Positions 3,883 through 41,255 are shown, counted from the stretch's first letter. The stretch is 64,000 nt of DNA from an archaeon (GCA_043826135.1 JBDRQT010000040.1:993-64992); one strand, 5' to 3'. Made by a program: numbers and translations. Notes: generated by a model from the letters alone, not told the origin.

Positions 3883-3911
3883 GAAATCACCTTGATTTAA
3901 GCTAAAATCAG

Positions 3912-10408: not shown

Positions 10409-10460
10409 ATCATCAATCAAACCAATAGAGATATAAAAAGCTTGCTCATTATTATTAAAA

Positions 10461-18546: not shown

Positions 18547-19986
18547 TCAAATCACTCTCAACAAATCAACACAAATTGCCACAATATCTGATGGAATATG
18601 TGCCTTATTTATAAGGAAATTTTGCTTTGCATCTTTGATAGACAAATAGTTCTCTTCATTTTCAACTTTTTCATATTTATTTAGATCCTCAATCATCTCT
18701 TCAAACCCCTCGGGGATCTTGTCAGTATGTTTCTTCAGTCTTTTCCTCAAATCATACTGCACTGCATCAAAGCACGCGACCACCAGTTCACCTGATAATT
18801 TTAGGGCTTTTTCTTTTAAATCTGGCTCGGCTACCGCTGGCAAAATAAAATCTTCGTGAGGTTCTGGCAGGTCAGAGATATCATCAGTAGGAACATCCGG
18901 AGGGATATCTGGCGGCAAATCCGGTGTGACTTCAGGCACATTTTTCTCAATCTCCTCTATCTGTTCAAGTGCTCTCAAATCATTATCCATGTCAGAGATA
19001 TCAATAATTTGCGGAGCGCTTGGTTCGTCGACTACCTCAAGTTCAACTCTCTCTTTTTGGTCAGTCTCCATGGATTTCGCCTGAAGAATATAAAGTACTT
19101 TTGATTTCATCGCCCATTCTATGCTTTGGGGTTTTCCAAATGCGGTGTTCACTTTTTTTAGCGCCTGGGCAATCTCTAAAACCTCATTGTCATAAAGGAC
19201 TTCTTTTTTTGAGTTGTCTCCCAGGTCCTGCATCACTGTCTCAAAGGTTTCAATATCTCTTATGAATTCAAACCTTTTATCACTTATATCACGCGTTGTC
19301 ACAATATAATCCTTATCCAAAACATAGACATCTGGAGTAATGCTGTCAGACTGCAGCCCGAAGCCAAGACCAAAACAGCCTTTTACAGTGATTCCATTTT
19401 CATCAGCAAAAGCAGTGCCTGATTTATCTGCATTTATCATCTTGTGGACAATGACAGCCATAGAAAAATCCCCTAACCCCTTACCTTTTGAGACTGATAT
19501 GGCTTCAGCAAGAGTGTCTGCATAATCTTCCAGCAAGGCAGAGAATAGTTTATCTTTTCCTTTCACATTAAGGGTTGTCTTTTGATGAACCAGAGTGTCC
19601 CCTGAGATAACGCTGCCCCTGACTGATACAAACACCTCCTTTGTCTCGAGAAGTGAAGATGCGCTCATTGAAAGATCCACTGAAAGGCTAAGATAAGCTT
19701 CAATAATCTCATCTGCAACATCTTCCTTGAATTCATATGAATGTATCATTTCAGAGAGCTTTTTTTTGCACTCATCCACCTTTTCAGGTGTGCATTTTGT
19801 AAGTTCAGAAATGGCGGCTTTTACATATTTTTCAGAAATGATTAAGTCAAATACATTTTTTGACAGGATGAATCCCGGCGGAACCTTGAATCCTTTTCTG
19901 AAGAGTCTGGCAATCCCGGCTGCCTTTTCTCCGAGCATCGCCGCATCGCTATCAGTGCACTCGCTGAAAAAATAAGTATATTTCAT
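18547..19986 (-). CDS. Stand-alone PEP-utilising-enzyme N-terminal (PPDK_N, ATP-grasp) domain protein with a Pro/Asp-rich linker and helical tail
   Basis: 'MLGEKAAGIARLFRKGFKVPPGFILS', 'VSVRGSVISGDT', 'AVIVHKMINADKSGTAF', 'SIEWAMKSKVLYILQAKSM' parallel the N-domain of ppsA in this window. There is no 'GG.TSHAA' phospho-His motif and no C-terminal barrel. I start it at ATG 19986 (TATA centred 27 nt upstream) rather than at the track's TTG at 20043. Confidence 0.6.
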   Translation of the reverse strand: MKYTYFFSECTDSDAAMLGEKAAGIARLFRKGFKVPPGFILSKNVFDLIISEKYVKAAISELTKCTPEKVDECKKKLSEMIHSYEFKEDVADEIIEAYLSLSVDLSMSASSLLETKEVFVSVRGSVISGDTLVHQKTTLNVKGKDKLFSALLEDYADTLAEAISVSKGKGLGDFSMAVIVHKMINADKSGTAFADENGITVKGCFGLGFGLQSDSITPDVYVLDKDYIVTTRDISDKRFEFIRDIETFETVMQDLGDNSKKEVLYDNEVLEIAQALKKVNTAFGKPQSIEWAMKSKVLYILQAKSMETDQKERVELEVVDEPSAPQIIDISDMDNDLRALEQIEEIEKNVPEVTPDLPPDIPPDVPTDDISDLPEPHEDFILPAVAEPDLKEKALKLSGELVVACFDAVQYDLRKRLKKHTDKIPEGFEEMIEDLNKYEKVENEENYLSIKDAKQNFLINKAHIPSDIVAICVDLLRVI

Positions 19987-20007
19987 ATGTTTGATAAATG
20001 CCTTGAA

Positions 20008-20019
20008 GTTATATAAACT
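20008..20019 (-). promoter_or_regulatory. TATA box (minus-strand TTTATATA) for leaderless 19986 start
   Basis: Centre is ~27 nt upstream of the minus-strand ATG at 19986. Confidence 0.45.
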
Positions 20020-20027
20020 TTTGGTTA

Positions 20028-20040
20028 GATTTAAATATAA
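20028..20040 (+). promoter_or_regulatory. TATA box (TTTAAATATA) for leaderless 20062 start
   Basis: Centre is ~27 nt upstream of the ATG at 20062. Confidence 0.45.
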
Positions 20041-20061
20041 CAAATAGCTCCGTTGCAGAAA

Positions 20062-27095: not shown

Positions 27096-27392
27096 ATGGC
27101 AATATCCTATAAGCAGCAGTGCATGAGATGCAAGAAAAATTTTGTCCTGACAAATTATAAAGAGAGATATCCTATCTGTTATGACTGCCAGAAAAGCGAG
27201 CTGGATAAGCCGATAGATAACAAAGAGATGAAGGAATTATTTGACATTCCCGAAGATTTCTACAAAAAAAACGGGTTTCTAAGGAATATTAAGCTTAATT
27301 ATCTGAGATACCATAACCTTACAGAGAAGCAGATTGCTGCGTTTAAAAAAAATGTTGAAACATTGAAAAATGATGCTAATTCAAAACATTAA
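27096..27392 (+). CDS. Small zinc-ribbon protein
   Basis: 'CMRC-x17-CYDC' four-Cys ribbon at the N-terminus. 98 aa. Confidence 0.45.
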   Translation: MAISYKQQCMRCKKNFVLTNYKERYPICYDCQKSELDKPIDNKEMKELFDIPEDFYKKNGFLRNIKLNYLRYHNLTEKQIAAFKKNVETLKNDANSKH

Positions 27393-28341
27393 TAGTTGTA
27401 TCAAATTTCATCACCCTATTTGGCATATCCCCTTTCATCAGAAGGACAACTGAGCTCTCCGGCTTTTCGTCTATATATTTCAGGCCAGCTGCCTTTGCAA
27501 CCTTCTCTGCAAAATCTTTGATCTCATCATGGGTCGGCATGTTCTCTTTCTTTAGTCTCTTCATTGCATAACCCACATGCACATAACCCTTGCATTCTAC
27601 AAAATCAAATGCGCATTTTTTTATTAACTCGCCGTAAAGTTCAGGATTTTTCATATTTAGCCCTTTGGTGAGCGTCAGCCTGATAACTTTCCTGCAATTT
27701 AGTTTCTTCATGAGCTCCAATGATTTATTGAATCTCTCCCATGCATTTTTTGTGAGTGGATTTGTTTCTTCAATGAATAATTTCTCTGTCGGACCTGCCA
27801 TTGTAATATAGAACTGTGTGGGTTCATGACCTATAAGTTTTTCTATCATTTCAGGAAAAGAGCCATTAGTGACAAGGTAGACCGACATGCCTCTTGTCTT
27901 GATCTCATCAATGAGTTCAGGAAGCCGTGGATACATAGTAGGCTCTCCGGTGAGGGATATTGCAAAATGGAGTGGCTGCTGCATTTCCTTAAGCCTTATC
28001 TTATTTGCATTTTTATTGCCTTTAAATCCCATCAGAATCTTGGTATGCTCTCTTATGCAGCCATCAACAATATCTTTCGGGTCATCAATTGGCCCATCCC
28101 ACTCTTTTAAAGCTGTTGAAATGTCTCTCCAACAGTGCCAGCACCTGAAATTGCAGTGCTGCAAAGCCGGCGTCATCTGAACGCATCTCCAGGTCTGGAT
28201 TCCATAGAAAGTGTTTTTATAGCATACTCCCCTGTTTCTTAAACTGTTTTTTGTCCAGCCGCATATCTTTATAGCGGAATGGTTGCCCACAATCCTATAG
28301 CCTTGATTTTCAAGTTCGAGGCGTTTCTTTGGGGTTATCAT
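27376..28341 (-). CDS. taw1: tRNA 4-demethylwyosine synthase (Taw1/TYW1, radical SAM)
   Basis: 'GYRIVGNHSAIKICGWTKNSLRNRGVCYKNTFYGIQTWRCVQMTP' plus radical-SAM 'CNFRCWHC'. 321 aa. Confidence 0.9.
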   Translation of the reverse strand: MITPKKRLELENQGYRIVGNHSAIKICGWTKNSLRNRGVCYKNTFYGIQTWRCVQMTPALQHCNFRCWHCWRDISTALKEWDGPIDDPKDIVDGCIREHTKILMGFKGNKNANKIRLKEMQQPLHFAISLTGEPTMYPRLPELIDEIKTRGMSVYLVTNGSFPEMIEKLIGHEPTQFYITMAGPTEKLFIEETNPLTKNAWERFNKSLELMKKLNCRKVIRLTLTKGLNMKNPELYGELIKKCAFDFVECKGYVHVGYAMKRLKKENMPTHDEIKDFAEKVAKAAGLKYIDEKPESSVVLLMKGDMPNRVMKFDTTINVLN

Positions 28342-28409
28342 AGTGCACTGAAATCCCCATCCATTTAAATAAAATAGGTTTTACGGAATACAAAGTAGGA
28401 TTAACCTCA

Positions 28410-28421
28410 AATTTAAATAAT
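28410..28421 (+). promoter_or_regulatory. TATA box (TTTAAATAA) heading the 28.4-37.3 kb operon
   Basis: Centre is ~27 nt upstream of ATG 28443. No comparable box was seen before 29007, 31587 or the S-component genes. Confidence 0.45.
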
Positions 28422-28442
28422 CCAATAATAATCTTATTGCAA

Positions 28443-29003
28443 ATGGTGGCCCAAGAAGAGACAAAAAAAAAGAGATTTGATTTGAAAAAGATCAGGAACC
28501 TCCTGATAGGGCTTGTGGTTCTGCTTGCAATAATCAAGATTAACAAAACAGTCTTCTTCATTTTGGTTTTCAGTGTATTAACCTATCTTGGGAAGCAAAT
28601 CAGGGGCATGTTTGGGCTGAAGATGGTTGTTTTGGATCCACTTCATTTCTCTGCCATTATGATGGTAAGATACATCGGAGTAAAAGAAGCAATAATTTTA
28701 GTGGCTTTCAATACCTTAATTGTCGATTTTGCGACGGCTATTGCAACTGACGGCACATTTGCAAATTTTTTCCTTTTTAGTAGCTCTGCCATAATATCAG
28801 TAACTTTGCTCGGAGGTGCTGCACCTGTTGTTTTTTGCACTTTTGCAGGCCTTCTTTATTCAATTGGGTATTTCATGTATAGAAGTGTTGTCAGAACCCA
28901 GTCTCAGTTTGAGGTAGTCTCAAAAGTCACAACAAGTTTTATTTTCACCTTTTTGTATGGATCCTTTATCGGGCCCCTGTTGGGGCTACTTATGAGCGTG
29001 TAA
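28443..29003 (+). CDS. Polytopic membrane protein, unknown function (first gene of the ECF-containing operon)
   Basis: Basic N-terminus ('KKKRFDLKKIR') then 5-6 TM. The start was moved to ATG 28443. Confidence 0.5.
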   Translation: MVAQEETKKKRFDLKKIRNLLIGLVVLLAIIKINKTVFFILVFSVLTYLGKQIRGMFGLKMVVLDPLHFSAIMMVRYIGVKEAIILVAFNTLIVDFATAIATDGTFANFFLFSSSAIISVTLLGGAAPVVFCTFAGLLYSIGYFMYRSVVRTQSQFEVVSKVTTSFIFTFLYGSFIGPLLGLLMSV

Positions 29004-29006
29004 ACC

Positions 29007-29591
29007 ATGGGGAAAAAAGAAAGAATTGCAGTTGAAATTGGATTTATTATACTGAATGTCATGCTGGTCGGCATGCTTGGCTATCTCTACATTGAGGGAT
29101 ATATTGCACTAGAAGTGGTGCTTGCATCTCTATTTGCGCTGATACTTTTTGACGCATTTATGTTGTTTAATTATTATATGCATAAAAAATACAAGTCCCT
29201 TGCAAGTGAATTTGGATTTGAATTCCTTACAAGATTCATGGAACAGCCAAGGATGGAAGGAACATATAAAGGAAATTGGTTTCAGCTTCATTTCACAAGC
29301 AGGGATCATGGTGAATATTGGGGAATTCCAAGAACCTACATCAAGCTTCAGTACAAGGATTCAAAAGAATTTAGTCGGGAAAAACTTTCAATTTATACTG
29401 ATTATAAGCATAGCGGATATTTAATAAATTCCATCGAACATGTTCAGAGGACCTACAAAAATTATCTACTGATGAAAATCAGGTATTATGTCACAGATAA
29501 AACCCATTTAACTGAATTGATGGACCTACTGATTAAAATATCCAAAGAATGTGAAGTGAAGAAACACGGGAAGAAATCGAAACTGAAATAA
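29007..29591 (+). CDS. Membrane protein (2 N-terminal TM + cytoplasmic domain), unknown function
   Basis: Starts 3 nt after the previous stop. Two hydrophobic helices, then a soluble ~130-aa domain. Confidence 0.5.
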   Translation: MGKKERIAVEIGFIILNVMLVGMLGYLYIEGYIALEVVLASLFALILFDAFMLFNYYMHKKYKSLASEFGFEFLTRFMEQPRMEGTYKGNWFQLHFTSRDHGEYWGIPRTYIKLQYKDSKEFSREKLSIYTDYKHSGYLINSIEHVQRTYKNYLLMKIRYYVTDKTHLTELMDLLIKISKECEVKKHGKKSKLK

Positions 29592-29641
29592 CCTCCTGAA
29601 AAACGAAAATATTTAATAGCGATGCATTCTAAATACCTGTA

Positions 29642-31597
29642 ATGAGGAATAATAGTGTTGCGATTTTGGTAGTTTCATTTCTAGTTTGCATATTACTTCT
29701 TGAATACGGCCTCATCTATATCAGTATACCTGAGAGTAAAGAGATGACTTCTCATGTGGCAACTGTCAAGTTCTGCAACAATCACCCTCCCTCTCTTTAT
29801 GTTCCGTGCAACATAACTGCTCAAGATCTTACCTTATATACCTGCCAAATTAATGCAAGTGATGCTGACAATACTACATTAATCTTTGATTCTGTCTTTG
29901 TTCAAGGAACAACATTTTTTTGGATCAATTCCACTGGCGCCATAAATTTCACTGCCAACCAAAGTAAAGTTGGTAACTACACGATATGGATAAGCGTAAG
30001 TGATAATACTGGATGCGATAATGCAGTAGCTTCTGAACTCTTTAATCTGGAAGTTATTCATGTGAACCATGCTCCTGTGAAGATAGGTAATATACCTAAC
30101 CAAGAAGGTTATCAGGACCAGTCATTTGGTGGATTATACCTTGGTGACTATTTTTATGACCCTGATGGAGATTCAATTACATTTCAAAAAGTTAACGACA
30201 TGGAACATATAAACACTACCATAACTGGAGCGACTGTGTCATTTTCTCCTATTGGAAACTGGTATGGGACAGAACTTATTACCTTCATGGCCCTTGACCC
30301 TTACCTAGCCAATGTCACAAGCAATAACCTGAGCGTTACCATTAAAAGGAAAGATTCCGGTGCCTCCACAACCTCCAGTGGTGGTGGCGGTGGTGGCGGA
30401 TTTAGCAGCAATCTCCCGTTATGTTTGCCTGACTGGCATTGCATAGAATGGGGACCATGCGAACCTGATAACCTGATGAAAAGAGAATGCAGTGACTTAA
30501 ATAACTGCAGTACAACATACCTTAAACCGAATGTCACAAAAGAGTGTGAATATATCTCCACCTGCTATGACGGATTTAAAGGGAAAGAAGAAGAAGGCAC
30601 TGATTGCGGGGGGGTATGCCCACCATGCGGCAACTGTTATGATAGTATTTGTAATAATAATGAAGAATGTCTAACAAATGCTGCGTCTGCACCTGATTGC
30701 GGCGGACCTTGCCAGGAATGCTCTAAAATCAGGGAAAGCTGCTACGATGGGAAATGCAATAATAATGAGGATTGCATGTATGGACTTACTGATATTCCGG
30801 ATTGCGGCGGATCATGCGGTGTTTGCCCTTCACTTGAACAGACTTTGACTAATGCATTCAATTGGGGATTGTGGATTCTTGTTGGACTAAGCGTTCTTCT
30901 GACAACATATACTGTGAATAAAACCTACCCTCTCTTTATTCTTTTCTTTAAAAAGAGGAAAAAAAAGATCTATGAGGATAGATTATTGCTGGAAACAAAA
31001 ATCACTGAATCTCTTTTAGATAGCCTAGCGAAGATTGAAGCAATGCTGGACAGGGATGAAGATATTCAGAAAATAATAATACTCTTCTCTCAGCTGGTGC
31101 GAAAATACTTCAAAAGCATATTCGAGATGAAATATGAATTCACATATGAGGAGATGATCAAAGAACTTAATTCAAGAAATATCAGCGAGACCTATAAGAA
31201 AGTACTTAAGTATTTCTTCCTACGCTCGACAGAAATGGAATATTCAGGAAACAGCGTTCAGAAAGATGAAGTGCGATCCATGATATCTGAATTCAGGACT
31301 ATACTCTCCTTATCGAGCAAAGAACCTTTGCATATAGAAGATAAAACAGGCTCTCACTCAAAACTGCTTTTGCTGGACATGATGTTTTTGGAGCTGTCAA
31401 AAGCAGAATCTGCTTTGAGAAGCAAGAAGTTAAATGATGCCTTTGCTAATTATCTGTCTTTATACGAAAAATATCAAAAATTAAAAGAAAATGACAAATT
31501 AAAAGTACATGGATTCTTGACTAGACTATATGAAGAGATTAGACTGGCCAGGGAAGAGTATGATTTGGAGATACCTGTGAAAAAAGATGCAAAATAA
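29642..31597 (+). CDS. Surface protein: N-terminal anchor, cadherin/Ig-like repeats, Gly7 hinge, Cys-rich modules, TM, cytoplasmic helical tail
   Basis: 'VNHAPVKIGNIPNQ...FYDPDGDSITF'; 'SSGGGGGGGFSS'; 'CLPDWHCIEWGPCEPDNLMKRECSDLNNC'; three 'CYD(G/S)..N..E....DCGG.C..C' modules; TM 'WGLWILVGLSVLLTTYTV'. The stop overlaps the ecfA start by 11 nt. Confidence 0.6.
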   Translation: MRNNSVAILVVSFLVCILLLEYGLIYISIPESKEMTSHVATVKFCNNHPPSLYVPCNITAQDLTLYTCQINASDADNTTLIFDSVFVQGTTFFWINSTGAINFTANQSKVGNYTIWISVSDNTGCDNAVASELFNLEVIHVNHAPVKIGNIPNQEGYQDQSFGGLYLGDYFYDPDGDSITFQKVNDMEHINTTITGATVSFSPIGNWYGTELITFMALDPYLANVTSNNLSVTIKRKDSGASTTSSGGGGGGGFSSNLPLCLPDWHCIEWGPCEPDNLMKRECSDLNNCSTTYLKPNVTKECEYISTCYDGFKGKEEEGTDCGGVCPPCGNCYDSICNNNEECLTNAASAPDCGGPCQECSKIRESCYDGKCNNNEDCMYGLTDIPDCGGSCGVCPSLEQTLTNAFNWGLWILVGLSVLLTTYTVNKTYPLFILFFKKRKKKIYEDRLLLETKITESLLDSLAKIEAMLDRDEDIQKIIILFSQLVRKYFKSIFEMKYEFTYEEMIKELNSRNISETYKKVLKYFFLRSTEMEYSGNSVQKDEVRSMISEFRTILSLSSKEPLHIEDKTGSHSKLLLLDMMFLELSKAESALRSKKLNDAFANYLSLYEKYQKLKENDKLKVHGFLTRLYEEIRLAREEYDLEIPVKKDAK

Positions 31598-33224
31598 TGC
31601 CGTTGAAATTTCCAAACTCTACTATTCTTACCCAGATGAAAAAAACATATTGCATGATATAAATCTCAAAATTCAAAAAAATTCTTTTAGCGTTATTATC
31701 GGACCTTCTGGATGTGGAAAAACAACTCTTCTTATGTTGATAAGGGGATTTTTTCAGGAATATGGTGGGACATTAAAAGGAAAATTACATGTACTAGGTG
31801 AAGACATAACCAAAGCAGATGTAAGCGAACTCGGAAAAAAGATAGGAATAATATTTCAAGACCCTCAGGTGCAGCTCCATCAGTTAAGAGTAATTGACGA
31901 GGTTGCATCAGCTCCCATGTACCAAGGATTACCTTATGAAGAATGTCAGAAACGGGCAAGAAAATTGATAGACCAGATCCTAGGAAAAGAATTCTATAAT
32001 AAGTCTCCAACTGAACTTAGTGGTGGACAACAACAGAAAGTTGCGCTTGCCGCCGCACTTGCCATGGACTGTGAGATTCTTTTATTGGATGAACCTTTTT
32101 CTTTTTTGGATAGCTCAGCAGCAAAAGAAGTACTAAGTCTCCTAATTGATCTGAAAAAACAGGGAAAAACAATCATTATCGCGACTCATGGTATAGAACA
32201 TATATCCGGAATTGCGGATGAATTAATATTGATGCAAAAAGGAGAGATAATATTGCAAGGATCCCCAACGTATGTGCTCTACAACTCAAAATTTGAGGCA
32301 GTACTTGAACTTCCTCTCTCAATTAAAACTAGCAAACTAATTAATAAAAAAGCTGTGGACTGGCCTGAATTGCTCAAAGAAAAAACATTTTCAAAAATTT
32401 CACGAAAAAATCATGTGCCTTATTCGAATGAAATTATCTTATCAATGGATAAAGTTAATTTCAACTATCCTGAAACAAAAAAGGGTTTGCATAATATTAA
32501 TCTAAAATTACATAAAAACGAAATTCTTGGATTAATTGGAAGCAATGGCTCAGGAAAAACAACTTTGGCGAAATTGATATTGGGACTATTAAAACCCGTT
32601 TCTGGCAAGTTAATTCTGCACGCAAGCGATATCGCTAAATATAATACAAAAGAAAGAGCGAAGTTAATAGGCTATGTCACCCAGGATCCAATTGATATGT
32701 TCTTTGAGGAATCACTGCTAAAAGAGGTTGCATTCGGACCTAGTTGCCTGGGATATGATAATCCTGAGAAAATTGCAGGAATTACACTAGAAAAACTAAA
32801 TCTGTTTAGCTACAAAAATAAACATCCTGATTCGCTATCTGGCGGGCAAAAATCTCTGCTTGGGATAGGAGATATACTTGCAAATAATCCCGAAATATTA
32901 GTATTGGATGAACCTGAGTTTGGACTAGACCCAAGAAATTGGCATAAGATAGTTGGTATTATAAAAGATTTACAAAAACAAGGAAAAACAATAATTGTAA
33001 TAACACAGGACCTTGAAAAATCGATGTTTCTTTGTGATAGAATAGTCTTATTGCATGAATGGGAAATAATAAAGATTGGAAAGCCAAAAGAAATCTTTAC
33101 ACGTAAAGTTATAAGTAAAACTAAGTTACTGCCTTTGCCTGTATTTGAAATATTACCATATTTGCCTGAAGAGGCGCTTGATTCAGAAGATGATTTTGTT
33201 AGAGAGGTTAAAAAGATATGGTGA
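31587..33224 (+). CDS. ecfA: Fused double ABC ATPase of an ECF-type transporter (EcfA1-EcfA2 fusion)
   Basis: Two cassettes. Walker A 'GPSGCGKTT' / 'GSNGSGKTT'; Q-loops 'FQDPQ' / 'TQDPI'; signatures 'LSGGQQQKV' / 'LSGGQKSLL'; Walker B 'LLLDEP' / 'LVLDEP'; H-loop 'ATHG' in cassette 1 but 'ITQD' (Gln) in cassette 2. Confidence 0.9.
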   Translation: MQNNAVEISKLYYSYPDEKNILHDINLKIQKNSFSVIIGPSGCGKTTLLMLIRGFFQEYGGTLKGKLHVLGEDITKADVSELGKKIGIIFQDPQVQLHQLRVIDEVASAPMYQGLPYEECQKRARKLIDQILGKEFYNKSPTELSGGQQQKVALAAALAMDCEILLLDEPFSFLDSSAAKEVLSLLIDLKKQGKTIIIATHGIEHISGIADELILMQKGEIILQGSPTYVLYNSKFEAVLELPLSIKTSKLINKKAVDWPELLKEKTFSKISRKNHVPYSNEIILSMDKVNFNYPETKKGLHNINLKLHKNEILGLIGSNGSGKTTLAKLILGLLKPVSGKLILHASDIAKYNTKERAKLIGYVTQDPIDMFFEESLLKEVAFGPSCLGYDNPEKIAGITLEKLNLFSYKNKHPDSLSGGQKSLLGIGDILANNPEILVLDEPEFGLDPRNWHKIVGIIKDLQKQGKTIIVITQDLEKSMFLCDRIVLLHEWEIIKIGKPKEIFTRKVISKTKLLPLPVFEILPYLPEEALDSEDDFVREVKKIW

Positions 33225-33787
33225 AGAACTGGAATACGACCAAGCTGATTACTGTAGGTTCTTTTGGAGTTCTCAGGGTATTGATATGGCTGCCATTTAC
33301 GCTCCTTGTCTCTACAAAAGCAAATCCTTTTTTACTTTTGTTTTCCTTCCTATTTTTTTCATTTATATCAGTTCTGAGCCTTCTGATAATTAGACAATTT
33401 GGAACAATGACTATACAGACGTTTGTTGAATATTGTATTGAACTACCTTTGCCTTCTTTTGCAATTAAATTACTAGATTTTAGTATGGCATTAATAAGAT
33501 CATTTTTAGTAGATATAATCTTTCACTTCACAAAAAGCAAGGAAAAGTTAACTTCAATTATATCAGGTGGAGCAAACAGCATTATTTTATCTCTTTTTTA
33601 TTATGTTGTTTATTTTATCCTAGGTATCCCTGGAATAGAACAAGTTTCTGCAGAATTTTTCACGCCAATCGTTGTTTTAGGTTTATTGATTACTGTATTT
33701 ATTGTGGGGGCAATCGGAGGATACTTTGGTTATATTGTTTACAATAAGATAAAGAATACTGCTGTTGTGAAGAGGATACAAAGATGA
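33218..33787 (+). CDS. ECF S-component-like membrane protein, paralog 1 of 6 (MptD/Trep_Strep-like)
   Basis: 189 aa, ~6 TM. N-terminus 'MVKNWNTTKLITVGSFGVL', C-terminus 'YNKIKNTAVVKRIQR'. Overlaps the ecfA stop (ATGGTGA). Confidence 0.7.
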   Translation: MVKNWNTTKLITVGSFGVLRVLIWLPFTLLVSTKANPFLLLFSFLFFSFISVLSLLIIRQFGTMTIQTFVEYCIELPLPSFAIKLLDFSMALIRSFLVDIIFHFTKSKEKLTSIISGGANSIILSLFYYVVYFILGIPGIEQVSAEFFTPIVVLGLLITVFIVGAIGGYFGYIVYNKIKNTAVVKRIQR

Positions 33788-34350
33788 AAAAGTGGACAAC
33801 TTCACAGTTAATTACAATTGGCGCAATAGCAATATTACAATTCTTATCAAGATTGTTTCTGTACAGTCCACTACTATTAGCTACTGGAAATGTTTTTACA
33901 GCAATTATAAGTATCATGCTAGGTCCATTTTTTGCAGTACTAATAGCTCTACTAATAAAAAAACGTGGCAGTGTTTTAATTTATATGATGCTATATTATT
34001 TTATTGATTTACCATTACCAAAAATTTATCCCCACGTTGCTAATTTTATTTTATATATAGCTATTGCCATATCAACAGAATTATTTTTTTCAATAATAAA
34101 AAACAAAAAGACATTCAGTATTTTAAGCAGCGGAGTGTATAATGTGTGGGTAGGTATAATTGGATTAGTATTATATTTTTATTTTGGATTTCAGGGTCTC
34201 TTTAAAATACCTGATGAGGTATATACACCTATTGGAATTATTTTATTAACTATTCTGTTATTTTTTGTTGGATCAATATCAGGATTCTTTGCATATGTTG
34301 TATATGAAAAGATTAAAAAAACAAGTGTTGTCAAGAGGATACAAAGATGA
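33784..34350 (+). CDS. ECF S-component-like membrane protein, paralog 2 of 6
   Basis: 188 aa. 'MKKWTTSQLITIGAIAIL' ... 'YEKIKKTSVVKRIQR'. ATGA overlap on both sides. Confidence 0.7.
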   Translation: MKKWTTSQLITIGAIAILQFLSRLFLYSPLLLATGNVFTAIISIMLGPFFAVLIALLIKKRGSVLIYMMLYYFIDLPLPKIYPHVANFILYIAIAISTELFFSIIKNKKTFSILSSGVYNVWVGIIGLVLYFYFGFQGLFKIPDEVYTPIGIILLTILLFFVGSISGFFAYVVYEKIKKTSVVKRIQR

Positions 34351-34907
34351 GCAAGTGGACCTTAACTAAATTCATCGTATCCAGCGCACTTGGAGTGCTG
34401 ACTGTTGTCTTGACGCTTCCTGCCAGTGCTTTGGTAGCATTTACAGGTATACCTTTGATGGGAGGATTCATCAATTTATTCATAGACAGGGTTCTTGACA
34501 CAATAACAGCCTTAAGTGTCAATAAATTTGGCTCAGTAACACTAAAAAGGACAGTTTTAGGTATTGTTGCTATCCCGACATTGCTTTTAGGCCCGCCGGG
34601 TTTTATTGTCAAAGTCATAATATCTGCAAGCAACGGACTGATAATTGATTTTGTGTATTTATTTGTAAAAGAAAAAAAAATAGCTGCAGTCTTAAGCAAC
34701 GGTATAGGAGCTGTTGCACTAGGTTTTACATTTGTTTTTTTGGGAAGGATATTCAGAATGCCTGGTGTTGATGAAACAGCACGTGTATTTTTGTCACCAT
34801 TAATGATTCTCCTCACATTTATTGGCGGAGCAATCAGCGGTTATTTAGGATGGTTTATTTTCCAGAAGATTAAGAATACAAGTGTAATTAAGAGGATACA
34901 AAGATGA
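34347..34907 (+). CDS. ECF S-component-like membrane protein, paralog 3 of 6
   Basis: 186 aa. 'MSKWTLTKFIVSSALGVL' ... 'FQKIKNTSVIKRIQR'. ATGA overlaps. Confidence 0.7.
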   Translation: MSKWTLTKFIVSSALGVLTVVLTLPASALVAFTGIPLMGGFINLFIDRVLDTITALSVNKFGSVTLKRTVLGIVAIPTLLLGPPGFIVKVIISASNGLIIDFVYLFVKEKKIAAVLSNGIGAVALGFTFVFLGRIFRMPGVDETARVFLSPLMILLTFIGGAISGYLGWFIFQKIKNTSVIKRIQR

Positions 34908-35473
34908 AAAACTGGAAGGCAACTACATTCGTAGCAATTAGCGCAATGGCTGCGTTAACTACAATCCTTTCTTTGCCAGGAGCAATACTAGCAGGTCTTA
35001 CTGGAATTGCAATATTCTCCGGCATTGGAAATGTTTTTATGATTGGTATTATGTATCCCTTAATCCCCTTATTATTTAAAAGAGTTGGCGCACTTACTCT
35101 TTGGTCTGTTATTAGTGGAATACTAGCAATTCCCTTTCCTATAATGGGTCCTCCAGGATTATTCATTAAAGTCATATATTCTGCTCTGTGGGGGATATTA
35201 GGAGATATAACTTATTTTGTATTTAAAAAATCAGAAAAGTTATCTGCTATAGCAATAGCAACAATTCAATTGGCTCCAGGAGTTCCTATAGCGGTTTTTT
35301 TCTGGAGCATATTGGGATTGCCAGAGATAGCTGCCCAATATAGTAATTTTGGTAATTTAAGCTGGTTTTTTATTGTGTCTGGCATTATATTTGGGGCATT
35401 ATTAGGCTATTTAAGCTATTTAATTTACAAAAAGATTGAAAAAACAACAATCGTTAGAAGAATTCAAAAATGA
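34904..35473 (+). CDS. ECF S-component-like membrane protein, paralog 4 of 6
   Basis: 189 aa. 'MKNWKATTFVAISAMAAL' ... 'YKKIEKTTIVRRIQK'. ATGA overlaps. Confidence 0.7.
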   Translation: MKNWKATTFVAISAMAALTTILSLPGAILAGLTGIAIFSGIGNVFMIGIMYPLIPLLFKRVGALTLWSVISGILAIPFPIMGPPGLFIKVIYSALWGILGDITYFVFKKSEKLSAIAIATIQLAPGVPIAVFFWSILGLPEIAAQYSNFGNLSWFFIVSGIIFGALLGYLSYLIYKKIEKTTIVRRIQK

Positions 35474-36036
35474 AAAAAAAGAAATGGACAACAACCAAAT
35501 TAATGGCAATCGGAGCTATTGCGGTGCTGGAGATATTAATCGGCCTTTTGGGTGCAGGGATAACAATAACAACAGGATTTGTTGCTGCCGGCGGTTTTAT
35601 TAATGCGCTTACTGGTGCCTTCATGATTGTTTTTACAATATTGGTGATTCAGACTTTTGGGGCAGGGACCATAAAAAGCCTTATCTTGGGAATAATTGTT
35701 CTGCCGCTTCCATTAATTGTTACTCCAGGTTTTTTGCCAAAAGTTCTCATTGCGTTTATTTGCGGACTTGTTGCAGATATTACATATTATGTATTAAGAA
35801 AAAAACAGAAGCTTGCTGTATTTTTTACAGGCAGCTTAACTCAGTTATGCATGGCTCTTGGAATTTTCTATTTTGGTCACCTGTTTAAGATTCCAGGAAT
35901 GGAATTTATGAGTAAATTATTATTTTCACCGCTTGCTCTGGTTTACATTGTATTAACAGGACTTGTTGGGCTATTTGCATTAAAGATATATGAAAAGATA
36001 AAAAATACCTCTGTAATAAAAAGAATACAAAAATGA
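35470..36036 (+). CDS. ECF S-component-like membrane protein, paralog 5 of 6
   Basis: 188 aa. 'MKKKKWTTTKLMAIGAIAVL' ... 'YEKIKNTSVIKRIQK'. ATGA overlaps. Confidence 0.7.
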   Translation: MKKKKWTTTKLMAIGAIAVLEILIGLLGAGITITTGFVAAGGFINALTGAFMIVFTILVIQTFGAGTIKSLILGIIVLPLPLIVTPGFLPKVLIAFICGLVADITYYVLRKKQKLAVFFTGSLTQLCMALGIFYFGHLFKIPGMEFMSKLLFSPLALVYIVLTGLVGLFALKIYEKIKNTSVIKRIQK

Positions 36037-36605
36037 AAAACAAATGGACAAGCACAAAACTTATTGCAATAGGCTCTATAGCGGTTATTAGATTACTGGT
36101 TGATATTATTGTTTATTATTCTGCATTAACAGCAACCAGCAGTGTTTTTGGTAGTTTAACAATTTTTATTTTAGGGCCAATATTTCAAGTTTTTGTTGCT
36201 TTAGTTATCCAAAGATTCGGATCTGTTACTCTTTTTTTGACTTTAAATTTTCTAATGGAATTACCGACCCCAACTGTATTTCCGAAATTAATTCTTCTTT
36301 TCTCGACACTATTACAAGGATTAATGATCGATATAACATGGTTAATATTTAAGAAAAATAACAAATTATTTGGCCTTGTCTCAGGATTCCTGATAAATGC
36401 TTTCTGGGTATTGCTTGCGATATTACTGTATTTTAGCATTGGTTTATATGGCACAGAACACATTCCAAAGATTATGGTTACTCCTTTATGGCTTTTTATA
36501 TTAGGATTGTTCCTTTCATTGATAGGAAGCGCGTGTGGCTATGCTGCTCTTTCAGTATATAATAAAATAAAGAATACATCAGTAATCAAGAGAATCCAAA
36601 GATGA
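36033..36605 (+). CDS. ECF S-component-like membrane protein, paralog 6 of 6
   Basis: 190 aa. 'MKNKWTSTKLIAIGSIAVI' ... 'YNKIKNTSVIKRIQR'. ATGA overlap with ecfT. Confidence 0.7.
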   Translation: MKNKWTSTKLIAIGSIAVIRLLVDIIVYYSALTATSSVFGSLTIFILGPIFQVFVALVIQRFGSVTLFLTLNFLMELPTPTVFPKLILLFSTLLQGLMIDITWLIFKKNNKLFGLVSGFLINAFWVLLAILLYFSIGLYGTEHIPKIMVTPLWLFILGLFLSLIGSACGYAALSVYNKIKNTSVIKRIQR

Positions 36606-37324
36606 ACCTAATCTACATAGAAAAAGCATCTGTTGTCCATTCCCTTAATTTCTGGACTAAATTTGTCTGCTTACTATTAATACTTCCTTTGATTAGTTTT
36701 ATTGCAAAAACAACTGCTCTGCCTTATTTGATATTGTTTTTTGTTTTGATACTGCTCCTTAGCAAGATACCTTTGATAAAATTCTGGAAAACAACAAAAG
36801 GTTATGTAATCCCCATTTTCATCAGTTTAATTGTGCTATCTATATTATTTTCAGAGGGCACGATAAATGAAAAACTTATAAGTGGACTATATCTTGCAAC
36901 AAGATTCGTTTTGCTTATTAGTTATGGGATACTTTTTAGCATGGTCACAAATCCAATAGAGTTTCCCATGGGATTTCTTCAGATAGGGATCCCACATAGA
37001 TTTGGTGTGACTTTAATGGTAGGCTATAGAATGATGCCGCTCCTTTCCAAGAAGATATCAACAATAATTGATGCACAAAAGGCGAGAGGAGCTGATTTTA
37101 AATTTAACATACTTAAGTTTGGAGATTTTTTCCAAAGAATTTTTTCCCTTATTATTCCAATTATACATTCAACACTTGAAACCTCTGTAAAGCTGTCAGA
37201 CACACTATTGTCAAGAGGCTATGACCCTTATGGAAAAATAACCAGGATCCCATTCAAAATCAGAGCTGCTGACATCATTTTAGTGCTTTTTTCAATAGGC
37301 TTCTCAATGCTATTTTTTGGCTAA
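36602..37324 (+). CDS. ecfT: ECF transporter transmembrane (T) component, CbiQ/EcfT family
   Basis: 240 aa, 5 TM. 'GIPHRFGVTLMVGYRMMPLL..IIDAQKARGADF' and 'LLSRGYD' match the Arg-containing coupling-helix motifs. Confidence 0.85.
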   Translation: MNLIYIEKASVVHSLNFWTKFVCLLLILPLISFIAKTTALPYLILFFVLILLLSKIPLIKFWKTTKGYVIPIFISLIVLSILFSEGTINEKLISGLYLATRFVLLISYGILFSMVTNPIEFPMGFLQIGIPHRFGVTLMVGYRMMPLLSKKISTIIDAQKARGADFKFNILKFGDFFQRIFSLIIPIIHSTLETSVKLSDTLLSRGYDPYGKITRIPFKIRAADIILVLFSIGFSMLFFG

Positions 37325-37440: not shown

Positions 37441-37569
37441 ATGACGAACGTAAACATCGAGATTCCAGGAGAACTTCACAGGAAAGTGAAGATTCAGTGC
37501 GCTATTGAAGAAGTTACGCTCAAAGACTTCATAATAGCTGCTTTGGAAGAAAAAATAAAGAAAAAATAA
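37441..37569 (+). CDS. 42-aa ribbon-helix-helix (CopG/Arc-like) protein
   Basis: Not in the track (<60 aa). MTNVNIEIPGELHRKVKIQCAIEEVTLKDFIIAALEEKIKKK fits the beta-strand ('VNIEIP') - helix ('GELHRKVKIQCAIE') - helix ('TLKDFIIAALEEKI') pattern. Confidence 0.45.
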   Translation: MTNVNIEIPGELHRKVKIQCAIEEVTLKDFIIAALEEKIKKK

Positions 37570-37576
37570 AGAGAAA

Positions 37577-37662
37577 GGTCAGGCATGCATATACTCATAG
37601 AACTGGTCCGGTTCTATTGCTTCTCAAAAGCTGAGTACACCCCCAAGGAAGCGTGCCTGACC
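37577..37662 (+). other. GC-rich nested stem-loop between the RHH gene and the giant surface-protein gene (terminator/attenuator or 5'-leader structure)
   Basis: 12-bp long-range stem GGTCAGGCATGC (37577-37588) with GCGTGCCTGACC (37651-37662; one G-U pair). It encloses a 7-bp hairpin ATAGAAC-TGGTCCG-GTTCTAT (37597-37617). The 3' arm ends 15 nt before ATG 37677. Confidence 0.4.
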
Positions 37663-37676
37663 CTCTTTTACCTAAA

Positions 37677-40600
37677 ATGAAAATCACTAGGAAAAAAATC
37701 GGGATTGGAATTATCTTGATGTTAGCATTGCTTAGCTTGGCATTTCCTAGCGTCGACGTAACAAATGTATTGGTCACCCCAATCAATGCAACAACATTGC
37801 AGGACCTCACTTGCACCTGGACAGTCAGCGGCTACACCCAATATAATATTTCATGGTACAATAACTCTGTACTATTCAATACGACAGTCAATGCATCCAC
37901 AATCACGCTATCTAATGTCTATACTGCAAAAGGGGAAGTCTGGATGTGCAAGGTGGTTGCAGAAAACGTGACAGAAGGGCTATCAGTTGAGGATAATTCA
38001 TCCACAACTATAAAAAATTCAGCGCCGTCGACACCTCTCCTCTTGAATACGACTGGACAAGATATCGGAAATTATGAACAAATTTTAGAAAATTTAACTT
38101 ACACCTTCACGATAGACAGCTCGGATCCAGATAATGTTGATTCCATTACTTACTCTTTGTCAAAAATAAGTGGTAATAATTATTGTGATCTTTCAGGAAA
38201 CATAGTCACCTGCACCCCTTATCTGCAACCGACAGGTACAGCTGATCAATACATGATTACAGCCCATGATGGTTTGATTGGAAGCCTTTCATTTATCAAT
38301 CTCAATGTCAGCCCTATAAATGACGCTCCGAATTTCACATCATATTTGACCAATACATTAATCTATGAAGGTGATCTTCTTTCTTATCCGTTTACTGTCA
38401 CTGATGAAGAGAATGCATCTGCCAATTTCTATTATGTGACCTTTGTGACTTCTCCATCTACGACAAGGCTTGAAAATTATACAACAAACTTTAGGGACTA
38501 TACTATTAGGTTCATTGGCAATGATGCAGCGCTTTACTCTGACGTCGGAAATTATTCCATAAATGTGTCTGTCTGCGATCCGGATGATATCAACCACTGC
38601 ACCATCCGAAGATTCAATCTGGTTGTTAATACCACAAACCACCAGCCTAACATCTCTGCGATACAAAACTACACAGGCAGACAAACCCAGAACTTCAGTT
38701 TTATTGTGAACGCAACTGATATTGATTCTACTGACACATTAGGATTTACAATTAGTACGATATCATGCGCCTTCTCAAATCCCTGGATTATTAATACTAC
38801 AAACAGCAGTGCAAATGCTACAGGTGCAGTAAATATGACTCTAAATAATACGCATATGCTTTGCCCGAATGTAACAATAACTGTTTCTGATAATAGAGGC
38901 GGAAGTTCATCAGTGAAGGTATATTTCAATCTCACAAACGAAGACGATTATCCTGTTATTAGCAATTTCAGCTTTTATGGCATTAATACTCAGAGCAATA
39001 TTGATATCCGTAATTTGACAGCCTACACAAATGCCCAGTTCTATTATCAGATAAACGGATCAGATCCTGATTCGCCAATAGATCCGCTCGAGACCCTAAC
39101 ATATACTGATAATTCAAGCAGCTGTGCCAACTGCCCTGTCCTTGTAATCCAATCTGGTGGCCTGATCAATATGACTTTCACTGATGCAGGAAATTTCAGC
39201 TATGAGATCAATCTGACAGACGCCTCCATGAATTACACTACTGCATGGATGCAGATAACAATAATTAATAATTCTAAACCTGGCTTTAATCAGACACCTG
39301 GAAATATTATCATTAATGAGACCGACAACCTATTATATGTTTTGAACGCGACTGATCCTGAAGGGATACCTGTTAATTTTTCCTCAAACTCCAGTTTGCT
39401 TAACTTTACATCATTAAACAGCCAGGGAACAGCCAATCATACTTATTATTGTGATGATATCGGGAATTATTCTATAAGAATAACTATCACAGATGGCCTT
39501 GGCGCTCAGAATCATTCTGATATCTCTCTGCAGATAAGAAACGAACCTACACAGCCAAATCTTCCTGATTTCGGCAACACAACAATCCTTGAAGAGATCT
39601 TATATTACAGAAACCTTGCAGTAGAAGTAATTGATTCAGATTATGATTGCGCGAAGGCAGGAGATAGTTACACATTTGTTCCTGTGGATATCAATGGCAA
39701 TGCTTTTTTATCCAGCTCTGGATTGATTTCATTTACCCCTGACCAGAATCTGAACGGAGTTTACATATTCAATGTAACAGTCATAGATAGCTATGGACTG
39801 AGTTCATCAAAAGAATGGAACCTGACAATTGCAAATCTGACAAACGCCCCATCAATAATTAATATTACTCCATACGATATTCCACTTAATACAAGCTGGG
39901 TGGCTGTGAGCAGCCTTGGCGTACCATACACAAATGTTAATGCCAGCGAAAACATGACGCTGTATTTTGATCACAATTCCACTGATTCTGATGGAGATCC
40001 ATTGTTCTTCAACTGGACAGTAAATGGCCAAGTTGTCAATTATTCAAGGAACTACACAAGAACTTTTAATTTTACTGATGCCGGAAATTACAACATTACT
40101 TTGGCTGTATCGGATAATGTCTCAGGAACACTTGCGCACAAGACGGTATTCACCTGGAATCTGACAGTTGAAAATAAGAACAGGCAGCCTGATCTTGCAA
40201 ATCCGCTCCTAGATTTCAACCTTAGCACTGTCTACAGATGGTCTACTTATATGACATACAGCCAAGGCATAATCAGATTTTACGATCCTGACGGTGATAC
40301 ACTTACATATAACAATTCTCCAACAACTTTGCTCAGTATTGAATATGATGGCAATGATGCCATTTTCACACCAATTACTCAAGGCACTCAGTACGTTGTG
40401 TTCAGTGCATCAGATGGCAATGAAATCTATTACAGCAATAATGTAACTATCAATATTACAGGTGTTCCAAATACGACGGTGGTCAGTGTGCAGGAGACAG
40501 GAACAACAACAAGAACAAGGACAAGAACAAGCTATGTGCCATATATTATCACTGAAGAGAAGGAAGTTGAAAAAGACATATATTTAGATATTTTAAATCC

Positions 40601-41255
40601 TGAACCTGTTGTGATATACAACAACAATACACTCAGGCAGGTAATTAGCCTCGTTAATAGCGGTAATAAAACACTCAAAGGGATATGGCTGTCAGCAATA
40701 ACCAATTCAAGCACAGCAGACATAAGTTTCTCAAATAATTACCTGAATGAGCTACTCATTGGAGAGACAAAAAAAACCGACCTAATCATTAAAGACTATA
40801 AGATATACAATAATTATGAGATAACGATAACTGCAAATGTAACCTCTCCTGCATACAAGGATAAGGCAGTAATATACATCAATGCGCTTGAAAAGACCAG
40901 AGGTAATCAGTCAGTCAGCGCGACTAAAATAACATTTGCCTCAGATCTGCTTGCAAGTAATCCTGAGTGTATAGAGCTTAATGAATATTTGAAGAAAGCG
41001 CTTCAGCTAATGGAAGAGAAAGATTATGAAGGCGCTGCAAAAATAACAGATTCAGTAATCCAGGGATGCAAATATCTTGTAGGCCAAAGCAGGCTCAAAG
41101 ATGATGCTCCAGGTAAGATCTATATTGATATGCAGAAGATACTTGATATCCCAAACATCAAAATAATTTCTGCAGTTCTGTTGTCATTGATTATAATATT
41201 AACAGTCCTTACAATAAGACAGAAAAGGATGAATGATGTGCTTGAGAATATGTGA
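37677..41255 (+). CDS. Giant (~1190 aa) surface protein: signal/anchor, many Ig/cadherin-like repeats, very dense N-x-S/T sequons, C-terminal TM anchor
   Basis: 'MKITRKKIGIGIILMLALLSLAFPS' signal. Repeats contain 'INDAPNF', 'NHQPNIS', 'DPDGD', 'DSDGDP'. C-terminal TM 'IISAVLLSLIIILTVLTI' plus a basic tail. The track's GTG 37653 was replaced by ATG 37677. Confidence 0.7.
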   Translation: MKITRKKIGIGIILMLALLSLAFPSVDVTNVLVTPINATTLQDLTCTWTVSGYTQYNISWYNNSVLFNTTVNASTITLSNVYTAKGEVWMCKVVAENVTEGLSVEDNSSTTIKNSAPSTPLLLNTTGQDIGNYEQILENLTYTFTIDSSDPDNVDSITYSLSKISGNNYCDLSGNIVTCTPYLQPTGTADQYMITAHDGLIGSLSFINLNVSPINDAPNFTSYLTNTLIYEGDLLSYPFTVTDEENASANFYYVTFVTSPSTTRLENYTTNFRDYTIRFIGNDAALYSDVGNYSINVSVCDPDDINHCTIRRFNLVVNTTNHQPNISAIQNYTGRQTQNFSFIVNATDIDSTDTLGFTISTISCAFSNPWIINTTNSSANATGAVNMTLNNTHMLCPNVTITVSDNRGGSSSVKVYFNLTNEDDYPVISNFSFYGINTQSNIDIRNLTAYTNAQFYYQINGSDPDSPIDPLETLTYTDNSSSCANCPVLVIQSGGLINMTFTDAGNFSYEINLTDASMNYTTAWMQITIINNSKPGFNQTPGNIIINETDNLLYVLNATDPEGIPVNFSSNSSLLNFTSLNSQGTANHTYYCDDIGNYSIRITITDGLGAQNHSDISLQIRNEPTQPNLPDFGNTTILEEILYYRNLAVEVIDSDYDCAKAGDSYTFVPVDINGNAFLSSSGLISFTPDQNLNGVYIFNVTVIDSYGLSSSKEWNLTIANLTNAPSIINITPYDIPLNTSWVAVSSLGVPYTNVNASENMTLYFDHNSTDSDGDPLFFNWTVNGQVVNYSRNYTRTFNFTDAGNYNITLAVSDNVSGTLAHKTVFTWNLTVENKNRQPDLANPLLDFNLSTVYRWSTYMTYSQGIIRFYDPDGDTLTYNNSPTTLLSIEYDGNDAIFTPITQGTQYVVFSASDGNEIYYSNNVTINITGVPNTTVVSVQETGTTTRTRTRTSYVPYIITEEKEVEKDIYLDILNPEPVVIYNNNTLRQVISLVNSGNKTLKGIWLSAITNSSTADISFSNNYLNELLIGETKKTDLIIKDYKIYNNYEITITANVTSPAYKDKAVIYINALEKTRGNQSVSATKITFASDLLASNPECIELNEYLKKALQLMEEKDYEGAAKITDSVIQGCKYLVGQSRLKDDAPGKIYIDMQKILDIPNIKIISAVLLSLIIILTVLTIRQKRMNDVLENM

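Follow-up and report, generated by a model that had tools for sequence, protein, structure and literature searches.

How many S components can one energising module serve in an importer of the energy-coupling factor (ECF) type, and where are their genes kept? In group I systems, a single S component is encoded in one operon with its dedicated module of ATPases (A and A′) and T component, and in group II systems several S components encoded at scattered sites share one module (PMC4245157, PMC5037267). In the 64,000-nucleotide stretch of archaeal DNA analysed here (GCA_043826135.1, JBDRQT010000040.1:993-64992; hereafter the window), this question is raised by an operon at 31587-37324 of the plus strand. 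As seen in an open reading frame (ORF) map of 28-41 kb, it consists of a gene for a fused, two-cassette EcfA-type ATPase, six tandem genes for paralogous proteins of 186-190 residues (S1 to S6) and a CbiQ/EcfT-type gene. An earlier note on this DNA, made from the sequence alone, had read it as a multi-substrate importer. We consider it probable that the operon encodes a YkoEDC/HtsTUV/MptDEF-like, type III ECF importer, in which one A-A′-T module is combined with six anciently diverged, alternative S components that belong to an archaeal branch within the Trep_Strep/MptD superfamily.

Operon layout and the energising module

The first gene of the operon (31587..33224) encodes the ATPase of 545 residues, and its stop codon runs into S1 in a 7-nt overlap, ATGGTGA. 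Then follow S1 (33218..33787, 189 residues), S2 (33784..34350, 188 residues), S3 (34347..34907, 186 residues), S4 (34904..35473, 189 residues), S5 (35470..36036, 188 residues), S6 (36033..36605, 190 residues) and the T component (36602..37324, 240 residues), all on the plus strand. Each of the six junctions from S1/S2 through S6/T is a 4-nt ATGA overlap, S6 being overlapped at both ends. The earlier note had given the same ORF coordinates, lengths and start and stop codons, which the ORF map reproduced exactly, and the same series of overlaps, which was confirmed by reading the junctions directly.

The six small ORFs are not a product of chance, because a hidden Markov model (HMM) of the family picks exactly these six in the window and nothing else, with E-values from 1e-47 to 1e-62 (1e-54 for S1, 1.7e-47 for S2, 1.5e-62 for both S3 and S5, and 2.2e-53 for S4). 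Nor is the array an artefact of the metagenome-assembled genome, since the independent Logan assembly of run SRR26275510 contains A-S1-S2-S3-S4-S5 in identical order and with identical overlaps.

The ATPase matches the ABC_tran model (PF00005, 200 bits) in two stretches and passes both NCBIfam equivalog models for ECF ATPases, TIGR04521 with 371.5 (cutoff 330) and TIGR04520 with 361.3 (cutoff 315), in keeping with the two complete ATP-binding cassettes that the gene had been proposed to carry. In an alignment with 11 homologues, both halves have the Walker A, Walker B, Q-loop and signature motifs. The first nucleotide-binding domain (NBD1) is canonical, with Walker A, Q-loop, signature, Walker B and H-loop all present, and its signature reads LSSGE instead of LSGGQ in most relatives. 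In the second (NBD2), the switch histidine of the H-loop, near the C-terminus of the ATPase, is replaced by glutamine (ITQDLE). This replacement extends throughout the clade of related metagenomic loci (described below and designated L001 and so on) in which the genes are co-directional, namely the window, L001, L003, L004 and L013-L018, whereas the histidine is kept in the Woesearchaeota-type loci (L008, L010) and in L005. Taken together, the NBD2 substitution and the NBD1 LSSGE signature hint that one ATP site of the fused ATPase may be degenerate.

The T component belongs to the CbiQ family (PF02361, 72 bits against a cutoff of 25) and falls far below the cutoff of the cobalt-specific model TIGR02454 (38 against 111.8). 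It possesses both X-Arg-X motifs of the coupling helices (QKARGAD and LLSRGYD), which are kept in six homologues from the clade. The operon contains no gene for an extracytoplasmic binding protein of the substrate-binding protein (SBP) type.

Sequence, fold and family of the six paralogs

Despite pairwise identities of only 22-36%, S1 to S6 align over their full length. All six are strongly hydrophobic, begin with the common motif (K)KW(T)T.KL and carry a copy of the basic C-terminal KIKNTSVIKRIQR motif. The latter, KIKNTSV(I/V)KRIQ(R/K), is their most conserved element, with a majority fraction of 0.82 compared with about 0.45 for the other helices. Where residues are identical between paralogs, the codons are identical in 54% of cases within the last 14 codons and in 40% elsewhere, which argues that the conserved gene ends are held by selection on the protein; on this codon evidence, recent gene conversion was rejected as their cause. 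A Shine-Dalgarno-like AGAGGA within the KRIQ codons was also considered as a reason for the motif and was rejected, being seen at three junctions only. Helix 1 has a conserved small-residue patch, G/S-[AS]-x-[AG], which is not the canonical small-xxx-Ala motif.

Two loop subtypes divide the paralogs three and three. S1 (ELPLP), S2 (DLPLP) and S6 (ELPTP) share the form (E/D)LP(L/T)P, and S3 (GPPGF), S4 (GPPGL) and S5 (TPGF) share the form IP/LP....GPPG/TPG(F/L)..KV. In the wider family the consensus of this extracellular loop 3 is LP.P..GPPGF.PK; thus, the GPPGF form appears to be the common state, lost in S1, S2 and S6.

The AlphaFold2 (AF2) model of S1, built on an alignment of the six paralogs only, reached a predicted local distance difference test (pLDDT) score of 82, and that of S6, built on an alignment of 88 family members, a pLDDT of 94.7 and a predicted template modelling (pTM) score of 0.90. 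Both models have six long helices followed by a short C-terminal helix. In a Foldseek search of the PDB, the first match for both was YkoE (5EDL), a group I S component, with probability 1.00 and template modelling (TM) scores of 0.60-0.65, the S1 model giving 0.65. The only further matches of the S6 model above 0.5 were ThiT (4MUU, 4TKR), FolT (9KYM_D) and the S chain of 4HUQ. With this model, ECF S components were matched with TM scores of 0.51-0.67, and matches outside this class did not exceed 0.32; for both models, every PDB match above 0.5 was an ECF S component. The models therefore predict an S-component fold for the family, and the basic N- and C-termini of S1 to S6 fit the N-in, C-in topology of S components. 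Thus, the terminal motifs, the three-and-three division and the approximately six transmembrane segments that the earlier note had described all reappeared in the alignment and the models, and the resemblance to S components on which its proposal hinged was found for both models.

Placement of the six proteins in a family was less straightforward. The earlier note had suggested a link to TIGR02185, and this NCBIfam model does indeed bear the name of the Trep_Strep/MptD putative ECF S component. None of S1 to S6 reaches the curated Trep_Strep/MptD cutoffs (28.7 bits in Pfam and 76.45 bits in NCBIfam) or matches the YkoE family PF09819 (ABC_cobalt). Two relatives within the clade (L001_14123 and L003_8001) likewise have no match to the Trep_Strep/MptD models, and the S protein of L017 scores only 17 bits. 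By word-indexed homology search, neither S6 nor the 88-sequence alignment recovered more than the protein itself or 8 matches. An exhaustive profile search with the six paralogs gathered 289 cluster representatives, 71 of them below 1e-30 and almost all 180-197 residues long. When 88 sampled members were compared individually with Pfam, 20 matched Trep_Strep, three ABC_cobalt (weakly) and one ECF_trnsprt. The Trep_Strep gathering score of 28.7 is exceeded by two distant members, P0122 (34.0) and P0141 (33.7). The six-paralog profile matches P0122 at 4e-17; a PF09605 annotation is precomputed for every relative of P0122, and several of these relatives are named by NCBI 'MptD family putative ECF transporter S component [Candidatus Woesearchaeota archaeon]'. 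Moreover, hhalign aligned the six paralogs with 24 PF09605-annotated proteins of the Woesearchaeota type at 99.6% probability and E 2e-24, over 184 of 188 columns and with the C-terminal motif included. The Woesearchaeota proteins themselves score only 31-42 bits with TIGR02185 (cutoff 76.45). These profile comparisons indicate that S1 to S6 are homologous to the Trep_Strep/MptD proteins and, as they remain below the curated cutoffs, that they form a divergent archaeal clade outside the curated models. Of the suggested link, then, the homology to PF09605 stands and membership by curated cutoff does not.

Related loci, proposed mechanism and genomic surroundings

Genome and metagenome collections were scanned with the six-paralog alignment, and the loci recovered were annotated with the family HMM, the A and T proteins of the window and Pfam. 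About 15 metagenomic loci repeat the A-S(n)-T arrangement with its 4-nt overlaps; a fused A, a variable number of S genes and T joined by such overlaps is the rule in the clade of the window. Among loci with both ends present, the number of S genes is one in L017, three plus a fragment in L003, six in the window and in L018, and ten in L001, and six truncated contigs have at least 4-5 each. In L004, also with both ends present, the fused ATPase and T are intact, but the stretch that separates them (3415-4341) holds only three S fragments of 100, 91 and 123 residues; these still match the family HMM and suggest either decay of the array or frameshifts from sequencing. Contigs of the Woesearchaeota type are arranged differently: their 2-4 S genes, accompanied by a TrmB or HTH_10 gene, occupy the plus strand and are flanked by T and by the A-A ATPase (fused or split), both on the minus strand. 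Wherever a related locus extends far enough to show it, an A-A ATPase, fused or split, and a CbiQ/T gene stand beside the S genes, so that the linkage to EcfA and EcfT expected from the earlier note holds. Its statement that such an organisation was not known to have been described fared less evenly. Our literature searches found no description of tandem S-component arrays, of DPANN ECF operons or of this clade, and yet the arrangement is recurrent in public metagenomes and not unique to the window. A tblastn search of plasmids with a Trep_Strep protein gave no match.

Several arrays are interrupted by a gene for a TrmB-family regulator. It lies on the opposite strand in L001 (11388-12215, minus), L018 (11650-12453, minus), L014 (1849-2619 and 3353-4156, minus), L003 (8798-9571, minus) and L008 (9562-10296, minus); in L006 an HTH_10 protein occupies the TrmB position. 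The window has no TrmB homologue, and its array therefore represents the uninterrupted form. In L003, an ORF of 226 residues without a Pfam match (10196-10876, plus) lies between the last S gene and T; the window lacks such an ORF. Beyond the A-S(n)-T block, the window has no gene in common with any related locus, which identifies the block as the conserved unit.

The varying number of S genes bears on whether the six proteins act separately or together. They might form one obligate hetero-oligomeric membrane unit, for example of pairs across the loop subtypes, working with A and T, and both the three-and-three split of the loops and the apparently tight coupling of expression would suit such a unit. 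However, L017 has a complete, overlap-coupled A-S-T operon with a single S gene, the copy number varies among the loci as 1, 3, 6, 6 or 10, the closest relative of the window (L003) has just one orthologous S, and solved ECF complexes (e.g. 4HUQ, 4RFS) contain one S per module. We regard an obligate assembly as highly improbable.

How old the paralogs are was assessed with a neighbour-joining tree and an identity matrix that included the S proteins of the related loci. Five of the six are nearer to genes of other genomes than to one another, which suggests that the duplications are older than these lineages. S3 has an ortholog in L003 (L003_8001, 81% identity) and S1 a counterpart in the first S of L001 (57%). 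The counterparts of S2, S5 and S6 in L001 are 42-46% identical, the best being L001_8564 for S2 (42%) and L001_14123 for S5 (46%). S4 is the most divergent, with at most 37% identity to any other sequence found. The ratio of nonsynonymous to synonymous substitution rates (dN/dS) in comparison with L003 is about 0.07 for S3 and 0.08 for both A and T, these values being approximate because dS is near saturation; they indicate that S3 is under purifying selection. In L003 the A and T proteins are 72% and 75% identical to those of the window, whereas S3 is the only S with an ortholog there. This suggests that the module is stable and that the S repertoire turns over.

It is here that a narrower role for the array has to be weighed. 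The six proteins could be isoforms for one substrate or a narrow class of substrates, differing in affinity, preferred conditions or regulation. All of them have the same length and terminal motifs, the extracellular LP.P..GPPGF.PK loop is present in many paralogs, no substrate clue separates the six, and other ABC importers are known to have multiple binding proteins of overlapping specificity (PMC4245157). Against this, identities of 22-36% within the window, together with counterparts elsewhere (81% for S3, 57% for S1), point to distinct subtypes kept over a long time; selection on S3 appears strongly purifying; and it is established that the paralogous S components of group II systems carry different substrates. 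We therefore think it unlikely that the six are mere isoforms, and prefer to see them as S components with different ligands.

If this preferred reading is right, the operon might work as follows. The eight genes would be carried on one transcript, and the ATGA stop/start overlaps would couple their translation. Each S protein would keep both of its basic ends, the N-terminus and the amphipathic C-terminal helix that corresponds to H7 of YkoE, on the cytoplasmic side, and would bind its own small-molecule substrate. The six would take turns in docking on the single A-A′-T module by means of the elements that they share, that is, the N-terminal W/T motif, the small-residue patch of helix 1 and the C-terminal KIKNTSVIKRIQR helix. 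Hydrolysis of ATP, for which one of the two sites may be degenerate and the other fully active, would topple the docked S, and the substrate would be released inside the cell. That six S proteins share the module is suggested by the gene content, six S genes alongside a single A and a single T gene. In this way, module sharing in the style of group II would be obtained from an operon in the style of group I and would provide a small archaeon with multi-substrate scavenging, its repertoire growing and shrinking by tandem duplication and loss. Different substrates, stoichiometric expression of the six S proteins and an auxotrophic symbiont as the host may all be part of this picture.

Several points weigh against the proposed importer. 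No Pfam or NCBIfam model, whether PF09605/TIGR02185, ECF_trnsprt, BioY, ABC_cobalt or any other, was matched by S1 to S6 at E up to 0.1. Sequence searches of the PDB with both the six-paralog and the family profile returned nothing meaningful, namely a COP9 subunit at E 0.43 with one profile and no match with the other. To our knowledge, no substrate is known for any Trep_Strep/MptD/HtsT protein. The window contains no RNA family of Rfam, and hence no riboswitch or other clue to a ligand. The most conserved extracellular element, LP.P..GPPGF.PK of loop 3, occurs in many paralogs, and the substrates could therefore be related and not diverse. The His-to-Gln change in NBD2 might lower ATPase activity. 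Finally, it is from the gene overlaps only that a single transcript and coupled translation are inferred.

As to the host, NCBI labels the source simply as 'archaeon' (locus tags ABIJ34_05055 and ABIJ34_05070). The window includes a Taw1/TYW1 gene (27376-28341, minus; Radical_SAM and Wyosine_form), which we take to be an archaeal/eukaryotic marker, and the taxon-labelled relatives are Woesearchaeota or 'archaeon', save for two. The archaeal origin asserted in the earlier note is thus supported, and the host is likely affiliated with DPANN. The two exceptions, L001 (CAYFXA010000019.1) and L002 (CAYFQP010000013.1), are titled 'uncultured Gammaproteobacteria bacterium', yet they have the same operon type as the archaeon-labelled contigs, and L001 has TrmB in its array; the label is probably wrong.

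Upstream, the chain of overlaps is one gene longer than the earlier note gave, since the stop of a gene for a Cys-rich, Ig/cadherin-like surface protein of 651 residues (29642..31597, plus) overlaps the ATPase start by 11 nt. This gene may be co-transcribed with the operon. It is outside the conserved module, no related locus having a homologue of it next to the operon. Eleven co-directional genes make up the run 28437-37324. Between this run and the Taw1/TYW1 gene lies a divergent intergenic region of 95 nt (28342..28436) with two TTTAAATA TATA-like boxes. Such boxes are confined to this gap, and an AT-rich element is found upstream of 29642, suggesting that transcription may start upstream of the ATPase gene. 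The region 28342-28436 is thus a candidate archaeal promoter for the run and may be bidirectional. A scan for sigma-70 promoters and terminators stayed at background (35 sites vs 36.6 expected), the sigma-70 model not being applicable to archaea.

A large surface protein is encoded on either side of the operon, the one of 651 residues and another of 1200 residues (37653-41255, plus). The two carry Big_9, cadherin-like and PKD domains, Cys-rich repeats and many N-x-S/T sequons; neither is conserved beside the operon in the other loci. In one sub-clade of the relatives, glycosyltransferase genes directly precede the fused ATPase and are coupled to it by overlaps (L001, 3135-6374), the two nearest to the ATPase being GT2 and GT4 by Pfam, and ORFs of matching length and position are present in L013 (4538-7790), L015 (5131-8374) and L018 (4755-8325). 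These genes may point to a connection with envelope glycosylation, or may mean no more than that the operon is long. Such neighbours are what could speak for a system that is not a nutrient importer at all and serves export, flipping or trafficking of envelope precursors or cofactors, or signalling. The operon of the window lies between surface proteins that are probably glycosylated, the S-component fold also occurs in sensor kinases (PMC11109136), and in Listeria an ECF system with distinct subunits is reported to function in flavin acquisition and extracytosolic trafficking (PMC9973259). On the other hand, the neighbours differ between the window and the other loci, all characterised ECF A-T-S systems of such architecture import (PMC4245157, PMC5037267), and none of the proteins described here carries a fused signalling domain. 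A role other than import seems to us quite unlikely, and import by alternative S components is the reading that we retain.

Other features of the window touch the operon less closely. A 42-residue ORF (37441-37569, plus), 117 nt downstream of the T gene, has weak ribbon-helix-helix/antitoxin-like matches (HicB 0.0069, ParD 0.028, RHH_10 0.036), all below cutoffs, and could be a small DNA-binding protein. A full-length protein of the phosphoenolpyruvate (PEP) synthase/pyruvate phosphate dikinase type (807 residues) is encoded at 11978-14401 (minus), and its partial paralog of 498 residues at 18547-20043 (minus) has the PPDK_N ATP-binding domain alone. No tRNA was found in the window.

Comparison with known ECF systems

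Structurally, the closest known system is YkoEDC, the group I ECF importer of thiamine or thiamine precursors in Bacillus subtilis. Like the operon described here, it has a fused double ATPase (YkoD; PMC5037267), a CbiQ-type T component (YkoC) and its S, A and T parts in one operon. YkoE, the best structural match of both models, has six helices and an extra basic C-terminal helix, H7, which makes electrostatic contacts with lipid headgroups and influences orientation in the membrane, and it lacks the helix-1 motif of group II (PMC5037267). YkoEDC differs in its single S component, its gene order S-A-T, its THI-box riboswitch and its membership in PF09819. The window has six S genes in the order A-S6-T, no Rfam match and no match to PF09819.

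By sequence, the nearest relatives are the Trep_Strep/MptD/HtsT proteins (PF09605, TIGR02185), among which are those of HtsTUV (TCDB 3.A.1.31) and of MptDEF from M. avium subsp. paratuberculosis. They too are hydrophobic proteins of about 190 residues with a basic C-terminal motif, present in multiple copies and located beside an A-A ATPase and a T component, and the profile-profile comparison points to their homology with S1 to S6. The TIGRFAM description gives 12 paralogs for Treponema denticola. The S proteins of the window differ in falling below the curated cutoffs, in forming a separate archaeal clade and in being encoded in an overlap-coupled tandem array inside the A...T operon. Also close are the Woesearchaeota-type MptD loci (L006, L008 and L010), which contain the same three types of parts, with 2-4 S genes beside the module and often a TrmB or HTH_10 gene. 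Unlike in the window, T and A-A flank the S genes on the opposite strand, the S proteins pass the PF09605 cutoff and the NBD2 histidine is kept.

Group II systems (EcfAA′T with ThiT, RibU, FolT, BioY and PanT) share with the window the S fold and, as the gene content here suggests, the use of several S components per module. Their S genes are scattered, A and A′ are separate, and helix 1 has a small-xxx-Ala docking motif (PMC4245157, PMC5037267), whereas the window has its S genes placed between those for A and T, both ATPase cassettes fused in one protein, and no more than a G-[AS]-x-[AG] patch of small residues on helix 1. With respect to the two groups, then, the S genes share an operon with A and T as in group I, and yet there is not one dedicated S per module but six, with 1-10 in the relatives. 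The scattering typical of group II is not observed either, since all six are located between A and T and the 64-kb window has no other member of the family. The organisation is thus a hybrid of groups I and II.

Each part of the operon is of a known type, and the proteins are already in public databases, some under the name MptD; what is unusual is the operon-encoded S library of variable size. A more far-reaching proposal, which we put forward tentatively and with some doubt, is that DPANN-type archaea possess a third organisational class of ECF systems. In such a class, the main hub of multi-metabolite scavenging would be a library of 1-10 exchangeable S components, encoded in the operon and evolving rapidly. 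It would be served by a dedicated fused ATPase, possibly with a degenerate site, and by a single T component, and its size and content would track the organism's needs from its host or community. If so, Trep_Strep/MptD would represent a broad-specificity radiation of S components and not a single-substrate family. For small-genome archaea, which are thought to depend on partners, an expandable S array would provide a concrete handle on the metabolites that they import. The operon also lends itself, as a compact system from nature, to the study of competition among several S components for one module, and the presence of up to ten S genes in the module's own operon blurs the division of ECF systems into groups I and II.

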